From Escherichia coli (GTDB lineage Bacteria; Pseudomonadota; Gammaproteobacteria; Enterobacterales; Enterobacteriaceae), in the NCBI RefSeq assembly GCF_003334335.1, contig NZ_QOWQ01000092.1: DNA of 2,232 bases; one strand, 5' to 3'. Shown one piece after another: positions 1 through 2,232 of this stretch. The notes under the pieces were generated by a model that was not told where the DNA came from, ran no database searches, and was given only the letters and a program-made list of their open reading frames with translations. How positions within the stretch are numbered: position 1 is the stretch's first letter; each line of letters starts with the position of its first letter. The position numbers and the translations under genes were made by a program.

Positions 1-2232
1 GGAGGCTCACACCTTTGACTCTGTGAAATTTATTCTGACCACCGCTCTCGCCGGTGGTCTGCTGGCTGTTCCCCTGCAGATCAAAAACATTCAGCAGAAC
101 GGGATCACACCAGAAGATATCAGCAAGGAAATTAACGGGTATTACTGCTGTTTTTATACTGCCTTTTTCCTTATGGCGTGTTCTGCATGCGCACCATTGA
201 TCGCGTTACAGTACGATATTTCACCGTCACTGATGTGGTGGGGCGGGTTGTTGTACTGGCTGGCTGCATTAGTGACGCTGCTATGGGCGGCCAGCCAAAT
301 CCAGGCGCTGAAAAAACTGACCTGTGCCATCAGCCAGACACTGGAAGAACAACCGGTGCTCAACAGTAAATCGTGGCTGACCAGTTTGCAAAACGATTAC
401 AGCCTTCCTGACTCACTGACGGAGCGCATCTGGCTGACGCTCATTTCTCAACGGATTTCCCGGGGAGAGCTGAGGGAATTTGAACTGGCAGACGGAAACT
501 GGTTACTGAACAATGCCTGGTATGAAAGAAACATGGCAGGGTTTAACGAACAGTTGAAAGAGAACCTGTCATTCACACCTGATGAACTGAAAACGCTCTT
601 CCGGAACCGCCTGAATTTATCACCGGAAGCGAATGACGATTTTCTCGATCGTTGCCTGGACGGCGGTGACTGGTATCCCTTTTCAGAAGGTCGCCGTTTT
701 GTATCATTCCATCACGTGGATGAGCTTCGTATCTGTGCCTCCTGCGGGCTGACAGAAGTACATCATGCCCCGGAAAATCATAAGCCGGATCCGGAATGGT
801 ACTGCTCCTCTCTTTGTCGCGAAACAGAAACACTGTGTCAGGAAATTTATGAACGCCCTTACAACAGCTTTATTTCCGATGCAACGGCGAATGGTCTGAT
901 TCTCATGAAACTGCCGGAAACCTGGAGTACAAATGAGAAAATGTTTGCTTCCGGAGGGCAGGGACATGGGTTTGCCGCTGAACGGGGAAACCATATTGTC
1001 GACAGAGTCCGTCTGAAAAACGCACGGATCCTCGGTGATAATAATGCCAGAAATGGAGCAGACAGACTGGTCAGCGGAACAGAAATCCAGACGAAATATT
1101 GTTCAACTGCAGCCCGTAGCGTCGGTGCGGCATTCGACGGACAAAACGGACAGTATCGTTACATGGGAAATAATGGCCCCATGCAACTGGAAGTCCCCCG
1201 TGATCAGTATGCCGGCGCTGTTGAAACCATGAGGAATAAGATCCGCGAAGGTAAAGTACCCGGTGTAACCGATCCCGCAGAAGCATCCCGGCTGATTCGT
1301 CGGGGACATCTGACTTATACTCAGGCCCGTAATATCACCCGGTTCGGGACCATCGAATCGGTCACTTATGATATTGCCGAGGGTTCGGTTGTCAGTCTGG
1401 CGGCCGGAGGGATCAGTTTTGCCCTGACGGCATCGGTCTTCTGGCTCAGCACCGGCGATCGCGATGCTGCCCTGCAGACAGCTGCTGTCCAGGCAGGAAA
1501 AACCTTCACCCGCACACTGGCTGTCTACGTCACAACCCAGCAACTCCACCGGCTCAGTGTTGTTCAGGGTATGCTGAAGCACATTGATTTTTCGACTGCC
1601 AGCCCGACTGTCCGACTGGCTCTTCAGAAGGGGACCGGTGCAGGAAATATCAGTGCCCTGAACAAAGTGATGAAGGGTACGCTGGTGACATCTCTGGCAC
1701 TGGTAGCTGTCACAACCGGCCCTGACATGATCAAAATGTTGCGGGGACGGATCTCCGGTACGCAGTTCATCAGGAATCTTGCCGTGGCATCTTCCGGTGT
1801 GGCAGGTGGTGCTGTCGGGTCAGTGGCGGGCGGAATACTGTTCAGTCCACTGGGACCATTTGGTGCACTGACAGGGCGTGTGGTTGGCGGTGTTCTGGGG
1901 GGAATGATTGCCTCCGCTGTATCAGGAAAAATTGCCGGAGCGCTGGTTGAAGAAGATCGCGTCAAAATTCTGGCAATGATTCAGGAGCAGGTGACATGGC
2001 TTGCCGGCAGTTTCCTGCTGACCGGACATGAGATTGAAAATCTGAACGAGAATCTGGCCCGTGTTATCGATCAGAATGCTCTGGAGATCATTTTCGCCGC
2101 CGGTATACAACAACGGGCCGCGACCAATATGTTAATCAAACCACTGGTGGTCAGTATCATCAGGCAACGCCCCGTCATGGAATATGATGCATCCCATCTC
2201 GGCAATATGGTTAACCGACTGGAAGAAGCATT
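1..2232 (+). CDS. Large uncharacterized membrane protein, internal fragment (partial at 3' end, probably also at 5' end); codon phase begins at nt 2
   Basis: Manual translation of the frame starting at nt 2 gives 743 consecutive sense codons (nt 2-2230) with no stop; the other two + frames hit stops within the first 26 nt (TGA at 16-18 and 24-26). Leu is mostly CTG and the translation has protein-like features (hydrophobic helix-length segments, Cys4 motif, GxxxG repeats). Translation begins EAHTFDSVKFILTTALAGGLLAVPLQI... and ends ...HLGNMVNRLEEA. Product identity is unassigned. Confidence 0.85.
29..292 (+). other. N-terminal cluster of three predicted transmembrane helices (aa 10-27, 46-69, 77-97 of the window translation)
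   Basis: Three uncharged hydrophobic stretches of 18-24 residues: FILTTALAGGLLAVPLQI, GYYCCFYTAFFLMACSACAPLIAL, LMWWGGLLYWLAALVTLLWAA, separated by short polar loops; the third is followed by the positive residues KK (aa 104-105). Judged by eye, no predictor run. Confidence 0.6.
734..817 (+). other. Putative zinc-ribbon-like Cys4 motif (C245-x2-C248 ... C268-x3-C272) with flanking His residues
   Basis: Translation reads HHVDELRICASCGLTEVHHAPENHKPDPEWYCSSLCRETETLC: two Cys pairs 19 residues apart, His at aa 237, 238, 254, 255, 260, and a fifth Cys at aa 279. The spacing matches a small zinc-ribbon knuckle pair; metal binding is inferred, not shown. Confidence 0.45.
1388..1447 (+). other. Internal hydrophobic, Gly/Ala-rich segment (aa 463-482), possible transmembrane or membrane-inserting helix
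   Basis: VVSLAAGGISFALTASVFWL is uncharged and helix-length, followed by the polar STGDRD. A shorter hydrophobic stretch LVTSLALVAVTTG follows at aa 561-573 (nt 1682-1720). Confidence 0.4.
1778..1948 (+). other. Glycine-zipper (tandem GxxxG) hydrophobic region, aa 593-649; candidate membrane hairpin or oligomerisation module
   Basis: LAVASSGVAGGAVGSVAGGILFSPLGPFGALTGRVVGGVLGGMIASAVSGKIAGALV contains G602-x3-G606-x3-G610, G621-x3-G625-x3-G629-x3-G633, G630-x3-G634 and G642-x3-G646. About 55 residues carry only two charged side chains (R626, K643), with a Pro-Leu-Gly-Pro turn-like centre at aa 616-619. Confidence 0.55.

Follow-up and report, generated by a model that had tools for sequence, protein, structure and literature searches.

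Treble-clef zinc fingers, reportedly delineated as a fold group by Krishna, Majumdar and Grishin in 2003, include the FCS-type Cys4 finger of YacG, the Escherichia coli DNA gyrase inhibitor (Protein Data Bank (PDB) 4tma chain I and 1lv3). Fingers of the TRASH/FCS type (L24e, YHS, zf-FCS, zf-FLZ and MYM) are said to share the consensus C-x2-C-x19-22-C-x3-C, attributed to Ettema et al. 2003, and in the Fur family (PerR, Zur and Fur) a winged helix precedes a structural Zn(Cys)4 site. Here we describe a four-Cys finger in YeeR, a membrane protein of E. coli, encoded in a stretch of 2,232 nucleotides (contig NZ_QOWQ01000092.1 of assembly GCF_003334335.1; the window hereafter). Frame 2 of the plus strand, on which all features given below lie, is open across all 743 codons of the window, and nucleotides 2–2232 code for an internal part of YeeR: window residues 1–743 are residues 89–831 of the 838-amino-acid protein WP_001315618.1, a protein residue being numbered as the window residue plus 88. 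The four Cys are invariant among full-length homologues, and we consider it likely that they form a single structural treble-clef Zn(Cys)4 finger, with zinc as the presumed metal.

The ten Cys and His residues that drew attention to this region in the initial annotation (H237, H238, C245, C248, H254, H255, H260, C268, C272 and C279) are all found exactly where it placed them, at nucleotides 710–838, and the spacing that it claimed, CxxC-19-CxxxC, is confirmed as C245-x2-C248-x19-C268-x3-C272. The first ligand pair, C245-A-S-C248 (734–745; protein C333 and C336), is followed by G249. The second, C268-S-S-L-C272 (803–817; protein C356 and C360), stands in the context W-[YF]-C-S-x-x-C, and the fifth Cys, C279 (836–838; protein C367), lies in a helix two turns after C272. 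When the residues of the window protein were shuffled 20,000 times, the pattern CxxC-x10-30-Cx2-4C arose in 0.18% of the shuffles, at least five His within 24 amino acids in 0.31%, and ten Cys or His within 43 amino acids in none. The motif is thus real and not a chance arrangement.

Conservation separates the Cys from the His. Searching 1.84 billion representative proteins exhaustively with HMMER returned 1199 relatives of YeeR, of which about 40 share its full architecture of 820–850 amino acids at 31–53% identity; the counts that follow refer to an alignment of YeeR with 42 such full-length homologues. C245, C248, C268 and C272 are each present in 43/43 sequences and are invariant in two further alignments too; this invariance at 31–53% identity indicates that the motif is under selection, and it answers the question, raised at the outset, of whether homologues keep all four Cys. 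Around the ligands, G249 is nearly invariant, and W266 (40/43), S269 (41/43), T275 (40/43) and C279 (40/43) are almost as well kept, giving a family signature of C-x-[SC]-C-G-x(14-21)-W-[YF]-C-S-x-x-C-x-x-T-E-x-x-C. Among 64 motif-carrying family members, 14 to 21 residues, most often 15 or 17, separate the two Cys pairs; a variable spacer between fixed pairs is what would be expected of a loop that joins two pairs of ligands.

The predicted fold of the domain (window residues 236–284, nucleotides 707–853) runs from a short helix through a strand, the CxxC knuckle, a second strand and a variable loop to a helix with the CxxxC pair at its start. In an AlphaFold2 model of a 67-residue region, built from a 42-sequence alignment (mean predicted local distance difference test (pLDDT) score 92.6), strand 19–22 leads into the knuckle C22/C25 at a β-hairpin turn, strand 28–30 follows, C45 lies two residues before helix 47–61 and C49 falls in the first helical turn. 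A second AlphaFold2 model, of 371 amino acids (protein residues 195–565, 138 sequences, pLDDT 91.6), gives the same secondary structure, with strands E136–139 and E145–147. With its CxxC on a β-hairpin turn and its CxxxC at the N terminus and first turn of a helix, the domain is predicted to be a treble clef and not a zinc ribbon: the models show a knuckle at the hairpin turn and the last two ligands at the helix start, and all four ligands are conserved. Of the initial description of a ‘Cys4 zinc-ribbon-like’ element, the conserved Cys4 metal-finger motif in the soluble domain of a membrane protein therefore stands, and the ribbon label does not. A zinc ribbon was considered and rejected, as that fold requires two zinc knuckles, each with its own β-hairpin, in a three-stranded sheet and only one hairpin knuckle is predicted.

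Searches with the finger point in the same direction at low strength. The structural matches of the domain model are zinc fingers only (YacG, PHD, Zur, zf-HIT and L24e), all of them weak. A PDB profile search aligned L24e over all four Cys below threshold (E 0.28), and hhalign against E. coli YacG aligned the four Cys at a probability of 54% (E 1.3e-4). None of 42 finger-domain sequences matched a Pfam family at an E value of 0.001 or better; the best sub-threshold hits were zf-FLZ (E 0.021, in 1 of the 42) and Zn_ribbon_IS1595 (best E 0.019, in two family members). A PDB sequence search with the whole window protein gave sub-threshold matches only.

The finger sits in what is probably the cytoplasmic part of the protein. 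Hydropathy gives six N-terminal transmembrane (TM) segments in YeeR, the last three of which fall within the window as Kyte–Doolittle peaks at residues 7–25, 51–69 and 78–98 (nucleotides 20–295), and the even-numbered loops and the stretch that follows TM6 are rich in Arg and Lys; six TM segments with positive-inside loops would place the following soluble region, finger included, in the cytoplasm. That region was rightly called soluble at the start, as the motif lies within a 361-amino-acid hydrophilic stretch between hydrophobic segments (protein residues 189–549). Two tandem winged-helix domains (window residues 108–170 and 171–235, nucleotides 323–706) open it; the finger follows directly, and then a helical linker and the YeeR_C module. 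A profile search of 5.8 billion proteins with the winged-helix plus finger module returned only E. coli and close YeeR fragments and thus no further family with such a module, in an index whose word matching limits sensitivity.

Several other readings of the Cys and His residues can be set against a single Zn(Cys)4 finger. The initial annotation saw in the His cluster (710–781), with H237 and H238 before the knuckle and H254, H255 and H260 in the variable loop, an alternative set of ligands or a second metal site beside the Cys4 site, and C279 could be counted towards either. The rarity of five His within 24 residues in the shuffles (0.31%), the recurrence of His238 in 9/43 homologues and that of C279 in 40/43 speak for it, but no His column is conserved: H237, H238, H254, H255 and H260 are kept in only 4, 9, 3, 2 and 3 of the 43 sequences. 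The spacer has no His at all in 41 of the 64 motif-carrying members, and three-His spacers appear confined to near-identical E. coli fragments. Three of the five His, moreover, fall in the length-variable loop that is the least confident part of the domain model (pLDDT around 78). As for C279, its position holds Cys in 52/64 members; the residues that replace it are L, A, I, V, M, Y or R, mostly aliphatic, and the three full-length homologues that lack it all have aliphatic residues instead; because such replacements (L, A, I, V or M) fit a buried helix residue, C279 is probably a buried core residue on the helix and not a ligand, and one extra conserved Cys would in any case be insufficient for a second site. 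Four ligand-grade Cys without a conserved His leave no basis for either a set of His ligands or a further metal site, both of which we regard as very improbable, and conservation that is complete for the Cys and poor for the His argues for one Zn(Cys)4 site. The His residues are probably not ligands but a lineage-specific trait of the variable loop.

Iron in place of zinc, bound by the four Cys in the manner of rubredoxin, seems similarly remote. The first pair, C-x-S-C-G, does resemble a rubredoxin-type knuckle, and sequence alone cannot separate zinc from iron, but the second pair, a CxxxC, lies on a helix and forms no further CxxCG knuckle, and the structural neighbours are all zinc proteins. 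A redox switch of the kind found in Hsp33 or RsrA, in which oxidation would free the zinc, disulfides would form and the activity of YeeR would change, is slightly easier to entertain and still distinctly unlikely. It is suggested only by the control of the operon by OxyR in E. coli, a link that concerns transcription only and E. coli only, with homologues standing in unrelated contexts; the structural match to PerR owes mainly to the winged helix. Hardest to credit is a periplasmic domain whose Cys pairs are disulfide bonds without metal. YeeR appears as an inner-membrane protein in a K-12 proteomics listing (PMC8144685), and its topology comes from hydropathy only, which would leave room for such an orientation; against it stand the six upstream TM segments with their Arg- and Lys-rich even-numbered loops and the Arg and Lys after TM6, the flanking winged helices, which are typical cytoplasmic modules, and homologues (such as P0170) in which the finger comes after an ATPase-like N terminus instead. 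The predicted knuckle-plus-helix arrangement of the ligands would, in addition, be that of a metal site.

With a single Zn(Cys)4 treble clef as the preferred reading, C245 and C248 would form a zinc knuckle on the turn of the β-hairpin, and, of the other pair, C268 would immediately precede the next α-helix and C272 would lie in its first turn. Most probably the zinc site would hold together a cytoplasmic domain of about 50 residues, which with the winged helices would present a surface that recognises a nucleic acid or a protein, and recognition would be coupled to the YeeR_C membrane module by a signal passed to it. Recognition of nucleic acid or protein, which the initial annotation had attributed to small ribbons in large membrane proteins, is a plausible role here because the finger directly follows two winged-helix domains. 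Two observations weigh against this overall picture: the inter-domain arrangement is uncertain in the 371-amino-acid model (predicted template modelling score 0.55), and many YeeR_C proteins, for example Firmicutes forms of 500–600 amino acids, are without the finger altogether.

The latter observation bears on what kind of module the finger is. The part of YeeR common to all 1199 relatives is the YeeR_C module, at protein residues of about 400–815, and the finger lies outside it. Of the 80 proteins in which over 100 residues precede this core, 52 carry the finger, and they include proteins of about 1000–1200 amino acids with N termini unlike the six-TM form of the YeeR type. The motif stands 70–90 amino acids upstream of the core in proteins whose N termini are quite different (P0170, P0176, P0184 and P0193). 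It is absent from many YeeR_C proteins and therefore accessory to the activity of the core: the finger is an input-side module, not part of the conserved core. P0170 (1162 amino acids) has a PtuA-like or AAA ATPase N terminus fused to the finger and YeeR_C; P0184 (L007:269-3880) has a long N-terminal extension and is adjoined by a Fic gene; and P0047 is an AAA (PF00004) fusion without a finger.

Within YeeR_C itself, a soluble N-terminal domain (window residues 311–451, nucleotides 932–1354) has the invariant residues E327 (in GHGFAAE), D354 (GADR) and Q363-x-K365 (IQTKY), whose columns are unchanged in 138 sequences, and an AlphaFold2 topology of α-β-β-β-α-β. These invariant residues and this topology resemble the PD-(D/E)xK nuclease signature. 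Pfam-A gave no significant family for 40 core domains, and a profile of the core gave sub-threshold matches only among PDB sequences. The membrane part (1388–1945) consists, by hydropathy, of a TM helix (residues 463–482) and a hydrophobic region rich in glycine zippers (residues 595–648), with GGxxGxxxGG repeats at 1784–1945. This membrane part or its glycine-zipper region weakly matches C19orf12, PHROGs for phage tape-measure and tail-lysin proteins and the PADLOC candidate-defence model PDC-M09B, and the glycine-zipper region may be a membrane-perturbing segment.

The gene in the window is full-length yeeR, the middle gene in an operon, agn43-yeeR-irmA. The window DNA is 100% identical to an annotated coding sequence, flanked by agn43 and irmA, in many E. 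coli chromosomes; in strain 1428 its product is the 838-amino-acid ‘hypothetical protein’ WP_001315618.1, encoded between agn43 (Ag43) and irmA on a CP4-44-type island that also has yeeS, yeeT and cbeA/cbtA. The operon has been described, with YeeR termed ‘uncharacterized’ and the K-12 copy truncated (PMC4807369, PMC9431211 and PMC6480617). Matches to the window occur in 2582 of 5426 complete E. coli genomes, about half, and in 1801 of them the match spans at least 80% of it. Across these genomes, yeeR is found in up to five places per genome, and in strain RM13322 (NZ_CP050498.1) it is interrupted by an IS600 insertion.

Existing annotation of YeeR is confined to ‘hypothetical protein’ in RefSeq and a sole Pfam model that covers the C-terminal half only. 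That model, PF27347 (YeeR_C), has precomputed matches on E. coli fragments of 98–100% identity and on all homologues. Our own scan of the window protein with a Pfam-A copy that does not contain PF27347 gave no significant family, and an NCBIfam search gave no match. We found no annotation or publication that ascribes winged helices or a zinc finger to YeeR, and nothing relevant in the literature on PDC-M09, YeeR_C or PF27347.

No neighbouring gene is conserved; the neighbours differ at every homologue locus examined, and the linkage to Ag43 and IrmA is peculiar to E. coli. One full-length homologue lies between genes for a sugar phosphotransferase system and nif genes, another is among transporter genes, and a third, 47% identical (L010:8001-10514), shares an island with HicA/HicB-like genes, with IS66 and with a TIR-domain gene of the CAP12/PCTIR kind, a neighbourhood that resembles a defence island. 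The finger-less Firmicutes forms (L003–L006, gene 6001–7731) are carried by mobile elements, beside relaxase, resolvase, WYL and an AAA+/peptidase-M41 gene, and the last of these (L004:3879-5135) matches PADLOC IetA (E 3e-17). Such a pattern is consistent with an accessory gene that stands alone in mobile or variable regions. PDC-M09B matches YeeR weakly, in two co-linear partial stretches only (E 4e-6 and 3e-5); among the homologues, the Firmicutes protein P0069 matches at E 1e-4 and P0121 gives no match. There are, then, hints of a role in a conflict system. A more specific proposal would make YeeR a membrane-anchored sensor-effector that acts alone, is carried by mobile islands and belongs to the anti-phage, abortive-infection or addiction type, in which the two winged helices and the finger would recognise foreign nucleic acid or protein and YeeR_C would respond through its PD-(D/E)xK-like E...D...QxK domain and glycine-zipper membrane helices; we hold this to be doubtful, a speculation with a small chance of being right.

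The value of these results lies in annotation and in making the function of YeeR testable, the finger itself being an ordinary domain type. Better annotation matters for a gene that shares a transcript with those for the adhesin Ag43 and the immune mimic IrmA and has no known function. On the basis of the models, the N-terminal soluble region can now be described concretely as two predicted winged helices and a conserved putative Zn(Cys)4 treble-clef finger, and the exact residues for mutation are C333, C336, C356 and C360 in protein numbering.

How, then, does the finger compare with the systems introduced above? With the classical zinc ribbon (TFIIS, TFIIB and the IS1595 transposase ribbon) it shares four Cys in two pairs, the first of them a CxxCG knuckle, but the second pair of YeeR is a CxxxC at the N terminus of a helix. 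Like the proteins of the Fur family, YeeR would have a structural Zn(Cys)4 site after a winged helix. The Fur-family site, however, is made of two CxxC pairs in a dimerisation domain that is accompanied by regulatory His-rich metal sites, whereas YeeR has a CxxxC second pair on a helix, two winged helices, a membrane anchor and His that are not conserved; the Fur-family structural matches also have a large root mean square deviation, about 10 Å for PerR.

With the TRASH/FCS type, YeeR shares the exact C-x2-C-x19-C-x3-C and the aromatic-C-S (YCS) at the last pair, although the family spacer of 14–21 residues overlaps the consensus x19-22 range only partly, the YeeR finger has no significant Pfam match and genes for metal trafficking show no link to it. 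These likenesses suggest that the finger resembles an FCS/YacG/TRASH-type treble clef, membership of any named family being not established. The likeness to YacG is not statistically secure. The hhalign alignment stops just after the fourth Cys. YacG is a free-standing protein of 65 amino acids with a C-terminal tail that binds GyrB; by contrast, the finger of YeeR is internal to a membrane protein of 838 amino acids, and its helix, unlike that of YacG, has its own conserved T-E-x-x-C signature.
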